From an uncultured Bacilli bacterium (GTDB taxonomy: Bacteria > Bacillota_I > Bacilli_A > RF39 > UBA660), in NCBI GenBank assembly GCA_934177995.1, contig CAKPPW010000005.1:1-59530 (forward strand): a stretch of 59,530 nt of DNA, read 5' to 3'. The notes under the pieces are model-generated. The model had not been told where the DNA came from. It searched no databases and was given only the letters and a program-made list of their open reading frames with translations. A program made the position numbers and the translations under genes. Position 1 is the stretch's first letter, and each line of letters opens with the position of its first letter. Shown one piece after another: positions 30,325-59,530 of this stretch.

Positions 30325-30427
30325 CCTGATAAAAAATTAGTAAAGAGTATATAAATTTCTTATTGAAAATGGCACCCAGTCATGATAAAATTTAAGTATC
30401 AAAGATAAAGAAAGTAGGTGCCTAGCT

Positions 30428-30514
30428 ATGTTGTCAAGTAATATGTTAAGTTTAACATGTGGGCAATTAGACAGTATAACTACTTTCTTTTATCATGGAT
30501 TAATAACAGGATAG
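30428..30514 (+). CDS. candidate leader peptide (28 aa) ending inside the terminator stem
   Basis: Reads MLSSNMLSLTCGQLDSITTFFYHGLITG. An SD-like AGGTG lies 7 nt upstream. The TAG stop at 30512-30514 lies in the 5' arm of the hairpin 30505-30531. Confidence 0.4.
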   Translation: MLSSNMLSLTCGQLDSITTFFYHGLITG

Positions 30515-30537
30515 GATAATCTTACCCTGTTTTTTTA
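30505..30537 (+). terminator. intrinsic terminator within the leader
   Basis: aacaggatagg / cttaccctgtt (11 positions, one mismatch and one G-U) with loop ataat, followed by a T-run, 16 nt before the ATG at 30553. Confidence 0.65.
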
Positions 30538-30552
30538 CTGAAGGAAGAAAAA

Positions 30553-31989
30553 ATGGATAAGAAGAAAGAAAGTATAATTTTATCAGTAATATTACTTTGT
30601 CTAATACTAATAGCAGTAGGTATGAGTTATGCCTTTTTAAAGACTAGTTTCTTTGGAGCCAAAACTAGTGTCTTAAAAGTAGGAAGTTTATCATTAGTAT
30701 TAGATGAAACATCAGGTAATGCTATAACAGTAGAAGATGGAACTCCTATGTATGATAGTGAAGGAGTTAAACAAGATAATTATTTTACCTTTGCTTTAAA
30801 AAATAATGGCGTAATAGATTCAGCCTATACTATCTATTTAGAAGATCAACCATTAGATGATGGTGATATAAGAGTAGGACAAAGTTATGTTCATTATAAT
30901 TTAGAAAAAGATAGTAGTGTTTTACCTGCTAAAGCCTTAGAAGGAGACCAAGCGATAGATAAAGGTATTATCAAAAAGAATCAAACAATCAATTATAAAA
31001 TGAGACTATGGTTTGCAAGTGACATACCACAATCAGAAGAAAATAAAGTATTTAAAGCCAAACTAAATATAGTAGGTAGTCAAAATATGAGGATGATGGC
31101 TAGTAATAACTATAGTGGAGATCTTTGGAACAGGAAACAAGATACAGTAACAAAGATAGTATTTCAAGATTCAATTAACAAAATAGAGGGAGAAAGTGAG
31201 TCATGGGATATATCATCTGCTAAAAATAAAACCGTAATGGCAAGACTAGTACCAAATACTGATAATACAACAACTAATACTTTGTATATACAAGGTAATG
31301 GTGGAGTGATAACTAATTATAATAGCAATTATCTATTTTGTAATTTTTCAAAATTAACCGAGATAGAAAATATAAATTTACTTGATACATCACAAGTAAC
31401 AAATATGAATTATATGTTTTATAGATGTAGTAAATTAACAAGTCTAGATGTAAGTAAGTTTGATATATCACAAGTAACAAATATGAGTTATATGTTTTAT
31501 AGTTGTAGCAGTTTAACAAACCTAGATGTAAATAAGTTTGATACATCAAATGTAACAAGTATGTATTCTATGTTTTCTGTTTGTAGCGGATTAACAAGTC
31601 TAGATGTAAGTAACTTTAATACATCACAAGTAACAAATATGGGGCTTATGTTTTACAATTGTAGTAGTTTAACGAGTTTAGATGTAAGTAAGCTTGATAC
31701 ATCACAAGTAACAAATATGAATAATATGTTTTCGCGATGTTACAGTTTAACAAGCCTGGATGTAAGTAATTTTGATACTTCACAAGTGACAAATATGGGG
31801 TCTATGTTTTATTCATGTAGCAGTTTAACAAGTCTAGACTTTAGAAAAGCCACATTTGATAAAGTAACTGACTATGGCAATATGTTTTATTATACTTCAT
31901 CTACTATAAACATAATAACTAAAGATGCAACTACTAAGAGTTGGTTAGAAGATAAGTTGGATGGTAAGGGAACTGTTACTATTGCTTAG
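30553..31989 (+). CDS. BspA/DUF285-type leucine-rich-repeat surface protein (copy 1)
   Basis: 478 aa with an N-terminal signal anchor and a beta-rich domain, then about seven 26-aa repeats (LTSLDVSxFDTSQVTNMxxMFxxCSS). Confidence 0.8.
   Translation: MDKKKESIILSVILLCLILIAVGMSYAFLKTSFFGAKTSVLKVGSLSLVLDETSGNAITVEDGTPMYDSEGVKQDNYFTFALKNNGVIDSAYTIYLEDQPLDDGDIRVGQSYVHYNLEKDSSVLPAKALEGDQAIDKGIIKKNQTINYKMRLWFASDIPQSEENKVFKAKLNIVGSQNMRMMASNNYSGDLWNRKQDTVTKIVFQDSINKIEGESESWDISSAKNKTVMARLVPNTDNTTTNTLYIQGNGGVITNYNSNYLFCNFSKLTEIENINLLDTSQVTNMNYMFYRCSKLTSLDVSKFDISQVTNMSYMFYSCSSLTNLDVNKFDTSNVTSMYSMFSVCSGLTSLDVSNFNTSQVTNMGLMFYNCSSLTSLDVSKLDTSQVTNMNNMFSRCYSLTSLDVSNFDTSQVTNMGSMFYSCSSLTSLDFRKATFDKVTDYGNMFYYTSSTINIITKDATTKSWLEDKLDGKGTVTIA
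31331..31900 (+). repeat. array of ~78-nt coding repeats (LRR units) inside the BspA-type gene
   Basis: Imperfect tandem units visible in DNA and protein. They lie inside a CDS and are not a CRISPR array. Confidence 0.8.
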
Positions 31990-32612: not shown

Positions 32613-32640
32613 TAAATTTATGATAATATAAACATTAAAT

Positions 32641-32845
32641 CAATGAGAAGGAAGTAGTAAAAGAGTAATAAAAGTAAAAGAGAGATTATGGTTGGTGAGA
32701 ATAATTCTTTTATCCTTTGAATTCGTCCTTTGAGTCTTAAAGCAAAACTTTAGGCGTTACTCGCGTTAAGAGATTAGAGTGTATAGAAAACTATAAAATA
32801 AGGTGGTACCACGGATATGTTTCGTCCTTAGTTTATAGTTTTTCT
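32641..32845 (+). promoter_or_regulatory. T-box riboswitch leader, probable Phe (UUC) specifier
   Basis: Has the stem I GA motif (AATGAGAAGGAAGTAGTA), AGAGAG, and the distal GGTTGGTGAGA. GAATTCG is in the specifier position (TTC at 32722-32724). The T-box sequence is AATAAGGTGGTACCACGG, and the terminal helix aaaactataaa/tttatagtttt is followed by a T-run. The operon contains pheS and pheT. Confidence 0.8.
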
Positions 32846-32861
32846 TTTGTTTAGGGGGATA

Positions 32862-50382: not shown

Positions 50383-51807
50383 ATGGAGAAAGCTATGCAA
50401 CCATTTATTTTTATATATCATGTTGTTGCTTATATATTTTCTTTACCAAAAACAATTCTTTCATATTCTTTTAAAGGTATTGCTTTTGTTTTTTCACTAT
50501 TTAATATTAAACCCAAAAAAGATGATGATAGTAAAGAAATAGAAGAAGAAGTAAAAAAATTAATGACTAAAAAAGAAGAAGAGGTCATTAAAGAAGAACC
50601 TTTATTCTCTTATAGATATAAGGCTAAAGGGGTTAATGGAAAAGTATTTTCTGGTACTATGGAAGGTAGTAGTGTTGATGATGTTAGAGACTTTTTGACT
50701 AACGAGGGCTATGAAATACTTGAAGTTAATCCTAGAAAGACATATGATGTTGATATTAATATAGGAGGTAAGTTTGGATCAGCCGAACTATCATTTACTT
50801 TAACTCAGTTATCTACTTATATTAAAGCTGGCATTTCACTAGTAGATTCAGTAAGAATACTTGAAAAACAAGCAGAGAAGCCAGAACATAGAAAAGTCTA
50901 TCAAAAGATGGTTTATGAGTTGTTGAAAGGGGAAAGTTTATCAGTAGCAATGCAAAAACAACAAGATAAGTTTCCTAAGTTATTAGTAAATATGGTCAAG
51001 ACTAGTGAGTTAACTGGAGACTTAACTTCAGTTTTAGATGATATGGCTGAGTATTATACTTCAAAAGAAGAAACAAAAAAAACAATGATTTCTGCTATGA
51101 CTTATCCAGTTATTGTTATAATAATAGCTATCTGCGTTGTAGTATTTATTTTAACTTCAATTGTTCCTAAATTTGTTGATATGTATAGTGCAAATGATGC
51201 AACTATTCCAGCGCTTACACAAACAATAATGAGTATAAGTAGTTTTTTAACCCATCACTATATTATATTAATTATCATAATAGGTGGTATCCTTGGAGCT
51301 TTTATTTTTCTTTTTAAACATGTACAAGCCTTTCGTAAAAATACACAGATTATAATGATGCATATACCTGTTTTGAGTAAAATAATTATTTACAATGAAG
51401 TCTATAATTTTACTAAGACTTTTGCATCACTTTTAAATCATGGAGTATTTATTACTGATAGTATGGAAATACTTGCTAAAATTACTAATAATGAAGTGTA
51501 TAAAGAACTAATTAATAGAACAATTATAAATCTAAATAAAGGAGCTAATATCTCAGATTCATTCAAGGGATCTTGGGCTTTCCCAGTAGCTGCTTATGAA
51601 ATGATTGTTACTGGAGAGTCCACTGGTCAGTTGGGATTAATGATGGAGAAAGTAGCTAATTATTATCAGACGCTACACAAAAATTTAGTAAAACAATTAC
51701 AAAGTTTAATAGAACCAATGATGATTGTATTCTTGGCACTTATAGTAGGTATTATTCTTTTATCAGTTATGATGCCAATGTTTGATATATATTCAAAGAT
51801 TCAGTAG
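50383..51807 (+). CDS. pilC: type IV pilus / T2SS platform protein (PilC/ComGB, GspF family)
   Basis: Has the typical N-terminal FSYRYKAKGVNGKVFSGTMEG...DFLTNEGYEILEV and two GspF repeats with 3 TM helices. About 70 extra N-terminal residues are present if the start is 50383; the alternative is ATG 50563. Confidence 0.8.
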   Translation: MEKAMQPFIFIYHVVAYIFSLPKTILSYSFKGIAFVFSLFNIKPKKDDDSKEIEEEVKKLMTKKEEEVIKEEPLFSYRYKAKGVNGKVFSGTMEGSSVDDVRDFLTNEGYEILEVNPRKTYDVDINIGGKFGSAELSFTLTQLSTYIKAGISLVDSVRILEKQAEKPEHRKVYQKMVYELLKGESLSVAMQKQQDKFPKLLVNMVKTSELTGDLTSVLDDMAEYYTSKEETKKTMISAMTYPVIVIIIAICVVVFILTSIVPKFVDMYSANDATIPALTQTIMSISSFLTHHYIILIIIIGGILGAFIFLFKHVQAFRKNTQIIMMHIPVLSKIIIYNEVYNFTKTFASLLNHGVFITDSMEILAKITNNEVYKELINRTIINLNKGANISDSFKGSWAFPVAAYEMIVTGESTGQLGLMMEKVANYYQTLHKNLVKQLQSLIEPMMIVFLALIVGIILLSVMMPMFDIYSKIQ

Positions 51808-52587
51808 GTGATGTTTATGGAAATAGTTTATTTAATATGTTTTCTTTTATTGGGGCTAGTAATGGGCTCTTTCTTTTGCGTTGTAGGCTTAAGACTAGCA
51901 AGAGAAGAAAATTTTGTGACAGGTAGAAGCTATTGTGATAGTTGCCATCATGAGTTGGCTGCTAAAGACTTAGTACCACTTTTTTCATTTATATTTTTAA
52001 AAGGAAGATGTAGATATTGTAAAAATAAAATTAATCCCTTATCTTTTTTCATTGAACTATTTACAGGTATTTTATTTATGATAGCATTCTATTCTTTTTC
52101 TTTTAGTATAGATTTATTAATAGTACTAGCAGCTATTTCTCTTACAATGATTATACTTGCAAGTGACACAACGTATCTAATTATTCCTGATGAAGTATTA
52201 GCTTTTTTTACAGTAATATTTATAGTATTAGATATTTTAAAACTTGGTTTTATTGATAGTTTAGAAATGATAGGTGGAGCTATTTTTCTTTTTCTCATCA
52301 TGTATGCTTTAATGAAATTTGGGGACTTTTTACTAAAAAAAGAAAGCTTGGGTGGTGGAGATGTGAAACTACTGTTTGTAATTGGTTTAGTTTTAAAACC
52401 ACTTTTAGGTATAGTTAATATTTTCTTAGGTAGTTTTATTGCTCTACCTGTATCAATCTTTTTATATAAAAAAAATAAGGAACACGTTATTCCTTTTGGA
52501 CCATTTCTCTTAATAGCTTTTCTAATAATACTATTTAGTAAAGTTACTCAGAATGATATTATTAATTTAATTCTTAATTTAAGCTAG
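51808..52587 (+). CDS. pilD: prepilin peptidase (A24 family, PilD/ComC)
   Basis: 259 aa. N-terminal Cys motifs are CDSCHH...CRYCKN, and the catalytic regions are IPDE and GGGDVKLL. Polytopic. Confidence 0.85.
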   Translation: MMFMEIVYLICFLLLGLVMGSFFCVVGLRLAREENFVTGRSYCDSCHHELAAKDLVPLFSFIFLKGRCRYCKNKINPLSFFIELFTGILFMIAFYSFSFSIDLLIVLAAISLTMIILASDTTYLIIPDEVLAFFTVIFIVLDILKLGFIDSLEMIGGAIFLFLIMYALMKFGDFLLKKESLGGGDVKLLFVIGLVLKPLLGIVNIFLGSFIALPVSIFLYKKNKEHVIPFGPFLLIAFLIILFSKVTQNDIINLILNLS

Positions 52588-56931: not shown

Positions 56932-58076
56932 TCTTTTTTAGTACGGGAAAAGTTAAAATATTAAGAAATTATTCTATAGTTATAGTAATAAGTAAGTATC
57001 TATGATATAAAATAATTAAAAATTTTTTTGTCATATGCTAATTTAGTAAATCTCGGTAAAAATATACCCTCAATTTACTAAATTGAAGGGTTGAATTTAA
57101 TAAAACCCCTAATTTGGAAGAGTGAATTTTGAAAATTGGCTATTTGCAAAGTGATATTCATATCTGTTATCCTTTAACTACTTGTCCAAAGAAGGGAGGA
57201 ATATGACAAAGAAATTTATAAAACCATTATATGATACTACTATAAAGTATTTAGTAAAAAGTACTGATACAAGGTATATCATCTATAAGTTTATTTATTT
57301 GGCAACTGGTATAGATCTTAGTGATTATACGTTAATAGATCAAGAGTTAAATACTGGTAATCATATAAAAGATTATCGTCTTGATTTATTATTTAAGAAA
57401 GATTCTACCATTGTTAATCTAGAAGTTAATTATGAAATGACATGCTGGACAAGAAGAAAACAATATAATTATCTATTTAGATTAGCCTAAAATGTCGGTG
57501 ATAGTTACAAGGCTAGAAAAGTTGTACAAATAAGTCTAAACAATTCTTACTTTGAAAAGAAAGATGCTAAGTTAGTCACTTACAGTTTTAGAGATAATGT
57601 TTATCATACTAAAATAGATGGTATTGAAAGTTATGAGGTATATCTAAGTAATTTTAAAGGCATTAAGTATAATGGTAAGAATGAGCTTGCTACACTGTGT
57701 TCTATTTTAACCAGTGAGAGCATGGAAGAATTAAAAGAAATAGTAGGAAACTATAAGGAGGGATTAATAATAATGAGCGAACTTGAAAAACTAAAACTAA
57801 ACGATGAATTTAATGCTTACTATGACTATGAAGCAGTTATTAGAAAAGAGAAAAACTCTGAATATGCTAGTGGCAGAGATGATGGACTAGCTGAGGGGTT
57901 GACCAAAGGAAAAAGTTTGGGACTGGCTGAAGGAAAAAGCTTAGGCTTATCTGAAGGAGCTAATAAAGAAAAATTAGCTATAGCAAAAATAATGCTTCAA
58001 GGAAAAGAATCCTTAGACAAGATAATGAAATATACTGGTTTAAGTAAAAAAGAACTTACTATGCTACTATAATTAT
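56932..58076 (+). mobile_element. Rpn / PD-(D/E)XK_2 'putative transposase' element, copy C
   Basis: Direct repeat of 23132-24255, including the upstream non-coding module. Lies immediately upstream of the second BspA-type leader. Confidence 0.7.
57203..58072 (+). pseudogene. Rpn-family / PDDEXK_2 protein with the same single in-frame TAA (57488-57490)
   Basis: 57203-57490 and 57491-58072 are in one frame. The stop is at the same codon (FRLA*NVGDSY) as in copy B. The C-terminal LGLAEG-type repeat number differs from copy B. Confidence 0.7.
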
Positions 58077-58188
58077 TGCTAGACAATAATTAACATAATT
58101 TTTACTTTAAAGTTAAAAAGTAGTTGAATAACCACTTCACTCCATGATAAACTTTAGATATAAGATAAAAGGAAGGAGCTAGATATAT

Positions 58189-58257
58189 ATGACAGTGTCA
58201 ACCAATATGTCAAGTTTACAATCAGTTAACATGGGGGGGGCATTTTATATAGTTTAA
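58189..58257 (+). CDS. candidate leader peptide, truncated form (22 aa) in the sequenced G8 state
   Basis: Reads MTVSTNMSSLQSVNMGGAFYIV. SD GGAAGGAG lies 10 nt upstream. The frame after the G-run differs from the one that matches copy 1. Confidence 0.35.
   Translation: MTVSTNMSSLQSVNMGGAFYIV
58233..58240 (+). repeat. G8 homopolymeric tract inside the leader uORF
   Basis: Eight consecutive G in a ~28-30% GC window. The equivalent position in copy 1 reads GTGGG. Confidence 0.95.
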
Positions 58258-58282
58258 TTACTTCTTTTTATCGTGCACTAAT

Positions 58283-58313
58283 AACAGGATAAGCTAGTCT
58301 TATCTTGTTTTTT
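58283..58313 (+). terminator. intrinsic terminator within leader copy 2
   Basis: aacaggataag / cttatcttgtt (11 bp, one G-U) with loop ctagt, followed by a T-run. Confidence 0.65.
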
Positions 58314-58344
58314 GGTGTAAATAAAATAGAAGGTGTAAAGAAGA

Positions 58345-59530
58345 ATGAATAACAAAAAACAATTATTACTATCAATCGGACTCGTTTTAATACTAGTTCT
58401 AATGATAGTAGGTATTAGTTATGCCGCCTTTCAGTTTACTGGTACTGGCCAAAAAACTAATACTATAACAACAGGTGTCTTGTCAATGAGCTATGATGAG
58501 TCAAGTAATACTATTAGTATGACAGGAGCCTTACCAACAACAGATGCCACAGGAAAAGTAAGATTAACCGAAGGAGAATACTTTGATTTTACAGTTAAAA
58601 GTACTATTCAAGGAGATGCTAATATTAACTGGGAGATAGCAGCAGAAGATATAACATCATCATCAGCTAAAAAGATAGATGGTAAAAACATAAAACTCTA
58701 TTTAACAAAACTAGATAGTACTGGAACAGAAACACAAGTAATGTCTCCTAAAGTGTTTACTACAAAGACAAGTGAAAACACAAAGACAGGAAGACCAGCT
58801 GGAATGATGAGTCTTGCAACAGGAACAATGAGTGCAAGTGAAACAACTAAATATCGTCTTAGAATGTATGTAGATGAAAGCTATAATCCACAAGGATATG
58901 GAGGAGGCCTATCATTTAGTGTTAAGATAAATGCTTATGGAAAAGTAAAAGAAGCACCAACAGGTAGTAAGTTGAAAGCATATACTATGGATGTTGATAG
59001 CAGACCATCAACAGATTTTCATACTAGTGATTACAAATCAAAAATAACAAGTATTACTACAAAAAAAGATAATATAGTACCAGAGACCGCAACGGAAAGT
59101 TGGGATATGTCAGAAGCAGGTGATGGTTCAGTAATGGCATATGTAGAAGATGATGAAAGTGGTAATAGTACCTATAAACTAACAATTGGTGGAAAAGATG
59201 GGATTATTGCTAATGAAAGTATGATAGATTATTTTTATGGGTTTAAAAATGTAACATCAATGGATTTATCAGCTCTTGATACAGCAAAAACTACAAGAAT
59301 GTATGGTATGTTTCAATATTGTAGCAGTTTAACAAATCTAGATTTAAGTACTTTTGATACATCACAGGTAACAGATATGATATATATGTTTTCTAATTGT
59401 AGCAGATTAACAAGTCTAGATGTAAGTAATTTTGATACCTCAAAAGTAACAAGTATGATATATATGTTTTCTAATTGTAGCAGATTAACAAGTCTAGATG
59501 TAAGTAATTTTGATACCTCAAAAGTAACAA
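58345..59530 (+). CDS. BspA/DUF285-type leucine-rich-repeat surface protein (copy 2), 3' end outside the window
   Basis: Not in the supplied track because there is no stop in the window. Starts MNNKKQLLLSIGLVLILVLMIVGISYAAFQFTGTGQ... and then has LRR units (LTSLDVSNFDTSKVTSMIYMFSNCSR). Confidence 0.8.
   Translation, partial: MNNKKQLLLSIGLVLILVLMIVGISYAAFQFTGTGQKTNTITTGVLSMSYDESSNTISMTGALPTTDATGKVRLTEGEYFDFTVKSTIQGDANINWEIAAEDITSSSAKKIDGKNIKLYLTKLDSTGTETQVMSPKVFTTKTSENTKTGRPAGMMSLATGTMSASETTKYRLRMYVDESYNPQGYGGGLSFSVKINAYGKVKEAPTGSKLKAYTMDVDSRPSTDFHTSDYKSKITSITTKKDNIVPETATESWDMSEAGDGSVMAYVEDDESGNSTYKLTIGGKDGIIANESMIDYFYGFKNVTSMDLSALDTAKTTRMYGMFQYCSSLTNLDLSTFDTSQVTDMIYMFSNCSRLTSLDVSNFDTSKVTSMIYMFSNCSRLTSLDVSNFDTSKVT
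59377..59530 (+). repeat. perfect tandem duplication of a 78-nt LRR-coding unit
   Basis: 59377-59454 is repeated exactly from 59455 to the window end (atgatatatatgttttctaattgtagcagattaacaagtctagatgtaagtaattttgatacctcaaaagtaacaagt). Confidence 0.9.

Follow-up and report, generated by a model that had tools for sequence, protein, structure and literature searches.

The closest described systems are the pil1 and pil3 pilus loci of Streptococcus gallolyticus, in which GCAGA repeats in a leader open reading frame (ORF) shift the position of its stop codon (Danne et al. 2014, PMC3894217). Expression is low when this stop lies at least 28 nt before a hairpin and high when it lies within or after the hairpin, and start-codon, added-stop and terminator-deletion mutants confirmed that this control requires both the terminator and translation of the leader (PMC3894217). 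Leader-peptide/terminator phase variation has been demonstrated experimentally only in these pili. Here we describe a candidate switch of this kind in a 59,530-nt stretch of DNA from an uncultured gut Bacilli bacterium (positions 1 to 59,530 of contig CAKPPW010000005.1, assembly GCA_934177995.1), referred to below as the window. Near its end, a run of eight guanines (G8) lies within a short upstream ORF (uORF) that is followed by an intrinsic terminator and then by a gene for a DUF285/BspA-like repeat surface protein. We consider it probable that this run is a slipped-strand contingency tract in a translated leader ORF that gates the intrinsic terminator in front of the DUF285 gene.

Every feature of a pil1/pil3-type switch that sequence can show was found at this locus and its homologs, namely a simple-sequence repeat in a short, putatively translated leader ORF with its own Shine-Dalgarno sequence (SD), an intrinsic terminator placed without an intervening promoter before the gene for a surface structure, movement of the stop upon repeat change, and repeat lengths that vary among isolates; both hosts are gut-associated Bacilli. 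In pil1/pil3 a change in repeat number shifts a stop that lies some 28-39 nt or farther upstream of the hairpin to a place within or after it, and the stop distances given below fall on the same sides of the pil1/pil3 threshold. Most cells are in the low state in pil1/pil3, which we count as a likeness to the mostly out-of-frame leaders described here. The leader carrying the G8 run (copy 2; copy 1 is a second leader elsewhere in the window) contains no pentanucleotide repeat and shows no sequence similarity to the pil1/pil3 leader, and because of this and of its homopolymeric repeat we regard it as a functional analogue, not a homolog, of the pil1 leader. What appears new relative to pil1/pil3 is the homopolymer (G8-G11, against 13-23 GCAGA units), the single productive frame (one of three, whereas both shifted pil1 frames give long peptides), a covarying helix over the leader's own SD and start codon that would sequester the ribosome-binding site (RBS), and the repeated deployment, with 13 or more copies per genome on a DUF285 family of at least 13 genes, against two pilus operons. 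The pil1/pil3 mechanism was established by experiment, whereas the present one is proposed from sequence. Searches of the literature retrieved neither a homopolymer version of a leader-peptide/terminator switch nor a phase-variation switch for DUF285 families.

As sequenced, the copy 2 uORF runs from the ATG at 58189 through the tract to TAA 58255-58257 (peptide MTVSTNMSSLQSVNMGGAFYIV), and from the end of this premature stop to the ACAGG of the terminator stem there are 26 nt. With one more guanine (G9) the peptide becomes MTVSTNMSSLQSVNMGGGILYSLITSFYRALITG and the stop moves to TAA 58290-58292. A G6 tract gives the same peptide less one Gly and the same stop, so that the restored-frame product can be written MTVSTNMSSLQSVNMGG(G)ILYSLITSFYRALITG. 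The frame is not restored by G7, and G10 belongs to the non-productive class, like G8. Copy 1 has an uninterrupted uORF encoding MLSSNMLSLTCGQLDSITTFFYHGLITG, which ends in TTFFYHGLITG before a TAG stop. The restored C-terminus of copy 2 (SLITSFYRALITG) shares 8 of 13 residues with that of copy 1 (SITTFFYHGLITG), and in both copies the stop, within ACAGGA-TAR, occupies the 7th to 9th bases of a hairpin that starts with ACAGGA. Copy 1 (30371-30558) and copy 2 are 70% identical over about 170 nt and have one unit in common, consisting of a promoter, an SD, a uORF, a terminator and the SD of a paralogous DUF285 gene; the encoded proteins are 32% identical over their N-terminal part. Much of this had been proposed in an initial annotation made from the letters of the window, and it was fully reproduced: the coordinates and translations of the copy 2 uORF, tract and stops, the 26-nt distance, the return of the stop to the copy 1 position with G9 or G6, and the 8 shared residues.

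Two further claims of that annotation, that a G8 run is highly unexpected in such AT-rich sequence and that its length might vary among strains, were likewise borne out. The run at 58233-58240 is the only G or C run of eight or more in the window (28% G+C), for which base frequencies predict about 0.05 such runs, and because a tract occupies the same position in about 40 homologous leaders it is not there by chance. Tract lengths among the tract-bearing leaders are G8 (n = 13), G9 (n = 18), G10 (n = 8) and G11 (n = 1). The copy 2 ortholog from another gut metagenome (L152), which shares the upstream Rpn-like remnant with copy 2 and encodes a protein 98% identical, has G10 versus G8 in the window. 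Moreover, three sets of near-identical contigs differ in their tracts: four contigs from four samples (P0018, 1.6 kb) that are otherwise identical carry G9, G10, G9 and G8, with both G9 versions in frame; five contigs (P0097, 1.9 kb) with no other internal difference carry G8 four times and G9 once; and six contigs (P0091, 1.78 kb), one of which has 3 substitutions, carry G8 five times and G9, in frame, once. Tract length is the sole indel in these sets, and the downstream proteins are identical. Judged by these assemblies, the tract is hypermutable at the DNA level. Two other candidate orthologs were rejected, P0002 as a tract-less paralog at another locus and P0003 because its contig is too short upstream.

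Homopolymers are error-prone, and exact-protein look-up with the 116-aa ORF upstream of copy 2 retrieved one short contig (L001) with the same G8 that may come from a related sample and so may not be independent of the window. It is nevertheless very improbable that G8 is a sequencing or assembly error or that the leader is a functionless relic. The same-site tract recurs in dozens of independent assemblies, produced by SPAdes and MEGAHIT or present in older scaffolds, whereas no other homopolymer varies in the aligned stretches of the P0018, P0097 and P0091 contigs. The downstream genes are intact, and promoter, SD, terminator and the long leader helix described below are conserved with compensatory changes.

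About 45 homologous leaders were assembled from related gut Bacilli (the Clostridium sp. CAG:451 group). The N-terminal domain of the protein encoded by the copy 2 gene has more than 1000 relatives in gut metagenomes, and a genome scan gave 30 loci in Clostridium sp. CAG:451 and in metagenome-assembled genomes (MAGs) of uncultured Bacilli. A strict regular expression for the leader end recovered 13 copies only, and an nhmmer profile used in its place found 24 leader units in the genome loci; one MAG (CAKOZV01) has 13 units. A metagenome scan with GTTAAYATGGGGGGG added further copies: among the at least 120 loci listed, about 100 were chance matches and at least 19 real leaders. Most family genes are preceded by an extended -10 promoter, a purine-rich 5' untranslated region (5'UTR) with an SD, a short ORF, and the motif GTTAACAT with the G run, and the unit continues 3' with TTTCTTTTATCATGCAYTAATAAC, the stop-containing hairpin, a T-run and the SD of the gene. 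The motif GTTAACAT is kept across the family regardless of reading frame, and there is no promoter in the 35-40-nt gap between unit and family gene.

For each complete leader the tract was varied from -2 to +2 and the stop of the SD-proximal ORF was located relative to the terminator stem. With one exception, every complete tract-bearing leader has exactly one of three length classes that ends inside the terminator hairpin. Counted from the first base of the stem, this productive stop lies at +6 in leaders of the main family; a diverged subgroup (L068, L069, L142), whose terminator differs in sequence, has it at +11 or +17. An in-frame stop lies within all three of the different terminator sequences of the family. 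The remaining two classes end 29-44 nt before the stem, apart from one copy that has -5 in one class. The exception, L038 (3627-3828, minus strand), has a nonsense change in its uORF (CAATAG versus CAACAG in the near-identical L064 and L139) and, since no tract length reaches the terminator, may be permanently silenced. Four of four tract-less leaders (window copy 1, L010, L027 and L153) keep one frame from the SD-proximal start as far as the stop in the terminator, their downstream genes are intact, and they represent three independent tract losses, L027 and L153 being one pair. Leaders with an insert of 27-75 nt after the start codon have an ORF that stays open throughout the insert (we estimate a chance of about 0.04 for 33 open codons at that composition), and they read GTTAACATGG in the other frame (LTWGG versus VNMGG). 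Since the inserts stay open and the frame of GTTAACATGG varies, it is the open path to the terminator that is conserved and not a particular N-terminal peptide. Judged by these reading frames, the frame logic holds family-wide, which agrees with the expectation of the initial annotation that homologous leaders would keep a frame across this segment.

These data bear directly on a model in which the length of the tract acts at the level of RNA, by pairing with the CUUUCUUUU stretch, the apex of the long leader helix or a C/U-rich small RNA, with a graded effect on termination or stability. An RNAalifold structure of 27 leaders does join seven G's of the tract to the conserved C/U stretch, the last two tract G's pair within the long helix in the minimum free energy (MFE) fold of the window leader, and small-RNA-targeted G-repeat leaders are known (H. 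pylori RepG-tlpB, PMC8295292). Such a model leaves unexplained why all tract-less copies are in frame and why the uORF is open across inserts, and it gives no account of one class always ending in the terminator whatever the N-terminal length. Productive lengths are leader-specific (G9 in L007 and L155, G10 or G7 in L139, G11 or G8 in L068), which a fixed pairing optimum would not predict, and the tract helix is almost wholly G-U. We therefore regard the model as unlikely.

A second possibility is that G8 is expressed as it stands, through -1 ribosomal frameshifting on G_GGG_GGG or through transcriptional slippage, yielding a constant productive fraction and no DNA switch. The zero frame of copy 2, AU-G GGG GGG G, indeed forms a perfect X_XXY_YYZ heptamer on which a -1 shift gives the G9 peptide, and a conserved hairpin adjoins the tract and might stimulate slippage. 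The heptamer is in phase in copy 2, but its phase varies across the family (M-G-G-G versus W-G-G-V by leader type), and the needed shift is +1 nt in about two thirds of the out-of-frame copies and -1 nt in the rest, so that no single recoding signal is conserved. Length changes at the DNA level are, in addition, seen directly between clonal contigs. Recoding as the sole mechanism thus strikes us as slightly less plausible again than an effect of RNA length, while slippage could add leakiness on top of a DNA switch.

The current state of the tracts is skewed: of the 38 tract-bearing leaders, 6 have the productive frame (binomial P = 0.013 against an expectation of one third), and in the MAG with 13 copies one tract-bearing and one tract-less copy have it. 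This low share fits a variable family that is mostly silent. Copy 1 of the window is instructive with respect to the tract-less state. Its tract site (about 30456-30466) has been destroyed (CATGTGGGCAA) and a 10-nt deletion has occurred, with the uORF still in frame, so that the copy is locked in frame. Its orthologs keep the tract, as G8 in L043, L106 and L102 and as G9, in frame, in L121. Copy 1 is therefore not ancestral but a derivative with a destroyed tract, and it looks naturally phase-locked.

Family genes also occur in other arrangements. Tandem arrays in which each gene has its own leader are found in L010 and L019 (contig CAKOZV010000011.1, 28.5-38.3 kb) and from L155:2295 onward, and L019 has two identical leaders 2.2 kb apart. 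Degenerate leaders at L013:2240-2500 and L014:2240-2500 keep the promoter and the C/U stretch without tract or T-run, the post-terminator segment is all that remains of the leader at L017:2300-2500, and L021, L022, L025 and L029-L031 have family genes without any leader. At L142:2100-2300 (minus strand) the leader precedes a G+C-richer, structured-looking sequence (GGTGTGCCGTGCATGGCATAT...GAAAGTCC...) in place of a family gene, which may be an inserted element.

In the MFE fold of the copy 2 leader (z = -5.5), the purine-rich 5'UTR together with the SD and start codon pairs with the post-tract coding segment in a long helix, P1 (Table 1). P1 is present in 36 of 36 leaders folded individually, and its 3' strand holds the premature stops of both non-productive frames. 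Its strands vary together by leader type (GUAGGUG with CUACUUUC, GUGAUUAA with UUAAUUAC, GUGUUACU with AGUAACAC), and even a change of the start codon from AUG to GUG is matched by U-to-C on the opposite strand. Covariation was counted in 41 distinct leaders realigned by a covariance model built from a homogeneous seed alignment. Standard pairs fill 90.6% of the cells of P1 and the terminator, versus 48-64% when partners are slid by 1-3 columns; 22 pairs versus 3-7 in the slid controls are changed on both sides; the covariation score is 0.25 versus 0.09-0.13; and none of 500 shuffles reached the observed values. Compensatory changes affect 6 pairs in the terminator helix (helix 8). RNAalifold on 27 mixed leaders recovered the terminator and the helix between tract and C/U stretch only, and missed the long helix because MAFFT had misaligned the purine-rich 5'UTR. 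P1 and the terminator are conserved and covarying. A terminator scan called 58283-58309 as the sole such hairpin in the region (0.2 sites in shuffled sequence), and 29 nt separate its T-run from the ATG of the downstream gene. Rfam gave no match for the whole window at the gathering threshold except a T-box leader elsewhere (RF00230, 112 bits, 32634-32832, 5' of an ORF starting at 32847), and none for 58050-58400 at E <= 10.

The initial annotation had named as an alternative that the similarity downstream of the tract reflects conservation of RNA structure instead of coding. This proved right insofar as the post-tract segment is a strand of a covarying helix, and wrong as a rival to the coding reading, for both hold: the segment is the 3' strand of P1 and part of the leader ORF at once. 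Conservation of the post-tract peptide, on a segment made up of the P1 3' strand and a terminator arm, is consequently no independent evidence for coding, and we discarded it as such.

The same segment invites the idea that the peptide, which ends in FFYHALITG and could be a hydrophobic signal or reside in the membrane, is itself the switched product, with a terminator that merely ends its transcript. Its end, (T/S)FFYH(A/G)LIT(G/R) followed by the stop, is conserved, and the unpaired spacer between P1 and the terminator (ATGCAYTAATA) is near-invariant, with the synonymous CTA/TTA as its commonest change. A peptide of this kind would not be expected to have an N-terminal half that is read in different frames by leader type, nor a stop that always falls inside the hairpin despite changes in terminator sequence, in a unit that always stands directly 5' of a family gene lacking a promoter of its own in the 35-40-nt gap. 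We give little credence to a stand-alone peptide; a stalling role of the conserved C-terminus is compatible with a gated terminator.

The spacer (11 nt, of the AUCGUGCACUAAUA type; AUGCAYUAAUA in the RNA of most copies) is near-invariant though it lies in no well-supported helix, and it could be a pause or arrest element. Its location in the window is 58273-58282, with 58278-58282 noted with 58312-58315. In many copies the 5'UTR carries a motif, AAGAUAAG, that complements the 3' arm of the terminator (CUUAUCUU), but this complementarity is weak in copy 1 and its orthologs, and an antiterminator formed by these segments was not adopted. No competing antiterminator helix was predicted in the leader folds and alignments, and no codon runs of the trp/his type were found in the leader peptides.

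Transcription of the unit is predicted to start at a promoter with an extended -10 element that is kept across the leaders of the family. Promoter scans call the homologous site in copy 1 (TTGAAA-17-TAAAAT with TG) and in L155 (TTGAAC-18-TAGAAT with TG). Tract-length switches acting through the promoter spacer operate at Bordetella fim and Neisseria opc, and the scan did find a TTAACA-16-TATAGT match (10/12) at 58226-58253 that spans the tract, raising the possibility that the tract sets the spacer of an internal promoter. The TTAACA and TATAGT elements occur in some copies only, the -10-like hexamer being missing in many members, among them in-frame ones such as L155. Promoter-like matches in the region number 3 versus 3.0 expected from shuffles, the terminator would lie between this promoter and the gene, and the frame data would go unexplained. 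After the promoter scan of L155 we rejected the spacer idea, which has scarcely any probability left.

Taking the gated terminator as the preferred reading, we propose the following sequence of events. Transcription would begin at the extended -10 promoter, and a ribosome would load onto the leader SD and start codon during ongoing RNA synthesis. Once the tract is transcribed, the post-tract segment would fold back on the 5'UTR, SD and start codon to form P1 and close the leader RBS. Because P1 buries the SD and start codon as soon as its 3' strand exists, initiation is probably limited to a co-transcriptional window, and P1 would in this kinetic role favour a ribosome close behind the polymerase. 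With a productive length (G9 or G6 in copy 2; one of three classes), the ribosome would cross the 3' strand of P1 and reach the stop within the 5' arm of the terminator; with this arm occluded by its footprint, no hairpin would form and polymerase would read into the gene (ON). In the other classes (G8 and G10 in copy 2), the ribosome would halt 29-44 nt before the stem, P1 and terminator would fold, and transcription would terminate (OFF). Replication slippage at the tract would switch the length class reversibly. From the locked in-frame copies with intact genes and from S. gallolyticus pil1/pil3, we infer that being in frame corresponds to ON. One genome has at least 13 units, mostly out of frame, and a given cell lineage would accordingly show one or few family members; from these sequences, random ON/OFF switching of a dozen or more individual surface proteins is probable in this gut bacterium.

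Several points weigh against this reading. First, the tract lengths are assembly consensus sequences and not reads. Second, the equation of in frame with ON would be carried over to this organism from precedent and from the locked copies. Third, the stability of the terminator hairpins is low (-6.5 to -15 kcal/mol), and many of their pairs are G-U. Fourth, occlusion of the terminator requires a ribosome close behind RNA polymerase, and transcription and translation are reportedly uncoupled to a large extent in Bacillus subtilis; results from S. gallolyticus and L. lactis show that a leader-terminator mechanism can work in Bacilli nonetheless. Finally, covariation was counted on an alignment fitted to the structure, and P1 explains the post-tract conservation at least in part.

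Other classes of switch resemble the locus in part. As in homopolymer contingency loci, the site is conserved and the length variable (G8-G11). With the coding-region loci, represented by the Campylobacter and Neisseria phasomes, a Bifidobacterium breve pilus poly-G (PMC9187656) and poly-A/poly-G tracts in lipoprotein genes of Mycoplasma agalactiae (PMC2824730), it shares a poly-G run of 8-11, a putative slippage-driven frame switch, surface targets and lengths that are polymorphic in close strains. Unlike in these, the tract lies here in a separate upstream ORF, so that the structural gene is intact and its protein sequence unaffected, and the frameshift would act on transcription termination. 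Classical attenuation (trp, his, pheL, and drug-induced systems) has the same order of leader ORF and terminator, with ribosome position deciding the hairpin, and P1 is similar to the 1:2 structure. The input there is amino-acid supply or a drug, whereas here it would be a heritable DNA length change, and neither regulatory codon runs nor a conserved antiterminator hairpin were identified; in reverse of trp, a ribosome at the end of the leader would prevent termination. Repeat RNA switches in 5'UTRs, such as the H. influenzae hmw1A heptamer hairpin with RNase III (PMC12721329) and H. pylori RepG/tlpB (PMC8295292), also have a transcribed repeat in or next to a long leader hairpin, and in RepG/tlpB the length of a G-repeat matters, as here; their graded output comes from RNA pairing or processing, whereas the readout here would be the reading frame. 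Lastly, the DUF285 'drp' family of Mycoplasma agalactiae and the mycoides cluster (PMC1868952, PMC2824730) is likewise made up of about a dozen repeat surface proteins with DUF285, encoded at scattered sites in small genomes of low G+C. Proteomics detected 2 of the 12-13 M. agalactiae members, for which no mechanism was found (PMC2824730). The authors identified no switch in that family and judged phase variation unlikely, in contrast to the poly-G leader unit that each gene has here.

A much wider interpretation, which we offer as a tentative and rather doubtful one, is that these units amount to an antigenic-variation system spanning the whole genome (about 1.4 Mb) of a prevalent uncultured lineage of human-gut Bacilli, with at least 13 DUF285 genes that each carry a self-contained, riboswitch-like poly-G leader-ORF unit. 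Within such a system, closure of the leader RBS by P1 may mean that the first, polymerase-coupled ribosome alone reads the tract state, the hairpin abutting the tract may make polymerase pause or favour slippage at the RNA level, the invariant YHALITG end may hold the ribosome on the terminator arm, and a 25-nt repeat that moves or removes promoters may be a second layer of variation. This unit of about 25 nt, TGTACATTTTAATT(C/T)GCAA..., is absent from the window and occurs elsewhere in 1-2 tandem copies at varied positions relative to the leaders (L004:164-215, L008:27-78, L024:28-79, L069:4515-4540; within the uORF at L016:375, L020:1081-1130, L102:1469-1520, L155:406 and others). It stands 5' of the -35, in place of the -35, in place of the whole promoter, or just 3' of the uORF start ('long' leaders), and in three loci near contig ends it is preceded by GAGAGTTAGCTATTAGTGAAGAAAAG. 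It may be a recombination site or the end of a mobile element that shuffles promoters among family members.

The proposed unit is relevant to phase variation, to attenuation and to the surfaces of gut commensals. Its homopolymer build suggests a general route to phase variation that leaves the coding sequence untouched, and a genome contains a dozen or more such units, which are kept across several species of an uncultured gut lineage. Frameshifted "junk" uORFs before surface genes would count as switches in genome annotation, the ON member of a family could be predicted from its sequence, and metagenomic reads could be used to track surface variation of small-genome commensals under immune or phage pressure. 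A switch of this kind could also explain why most DUF285 family members go unexpressed in Mollicutes-like genomes, and the covarying helix that would sequester the RBS is a possible model for enforced ribosome-polymerase coupling in Gram-positive attenuators.

Table 1. Coordinates of the two leaders and their genes in the window (all on the forward strand).
Feature	Position	Details
Promoter, leader copy 2	58124-58153	-35 TTGAAT 58124-58129, 18-nt spacer, extended -10 TGaTAAACT; read from sequence
-10 hexamer, copy 2	58148-58153	
P1 5' strand, copy 2	58164-58199	purine-rich 5'UTR, SD, start codon (58189-58191); MFE fold
SD of copy 2 uORF	58175-58178	GGAG, 10 nt 5' of ATG 58189
Leader uORF, copy 2	58189-58257	G8 as sequenced; 22 codons + TAA
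Small apical hairpin, copy 2	58206-58233	AUAUGUCAAG...GUUAACAU; 58206-58215 pairs with 58224-58233, ends at first tract G; helices 5-6 in the 41-leader realignment
Hypermutable poly-G tract	58233-58240	G8; same-site homologs G8-G11, length varies between near-identical contigs
P1 3' strand, copy 2	58239-58272	post-tract coding segment, ILYSLITSFY in restored frame; pairs with 58164-58199
Intrinsic terminator, copy 2	58283-58315	stem-loop 58283-58309 (11 pairs), then T-run; restored stop 58290-58292 in 5' arm
Putatively controlled gene, copy 2	58345-59530	DUF285/BspA-like repeat surface protein, N-terminal signal-anchor; runs off window end
Leader copy 1	30363-30537	promoter 30363-30391, uORF 30428-30514, hairpin 30505-30531 + T7
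P1, copy 1	30404-30435 with 30462-30494	
Putatively controlled paralogous gene, copy 1	30553-31989	DUF285 surface protein, 478 aa, intact

The surroundings of copy 2 have features of their own. Immediately upstream of the leader are two ORF fragments, 57182-57490 and 57722-58072, with a stop at 57488 between them, which look like remnants of one Rpn/PD-(D/E)XK-type nuclease gene; the second has a faint HTH_Rpn_C match. The end of the window (59390-59530) falls in near-identical 75-nt (25-aa) DUF285 repeats, where L001 has a run of N, and such repeats probably break assemblies of these genes. Genes for a type II secretion/ComGB-like platform protein and a prepilin peptidase lie at 50383-52587, and the N-termini of the surface proteins (GISYAAF) are not obviously prepilin-like.

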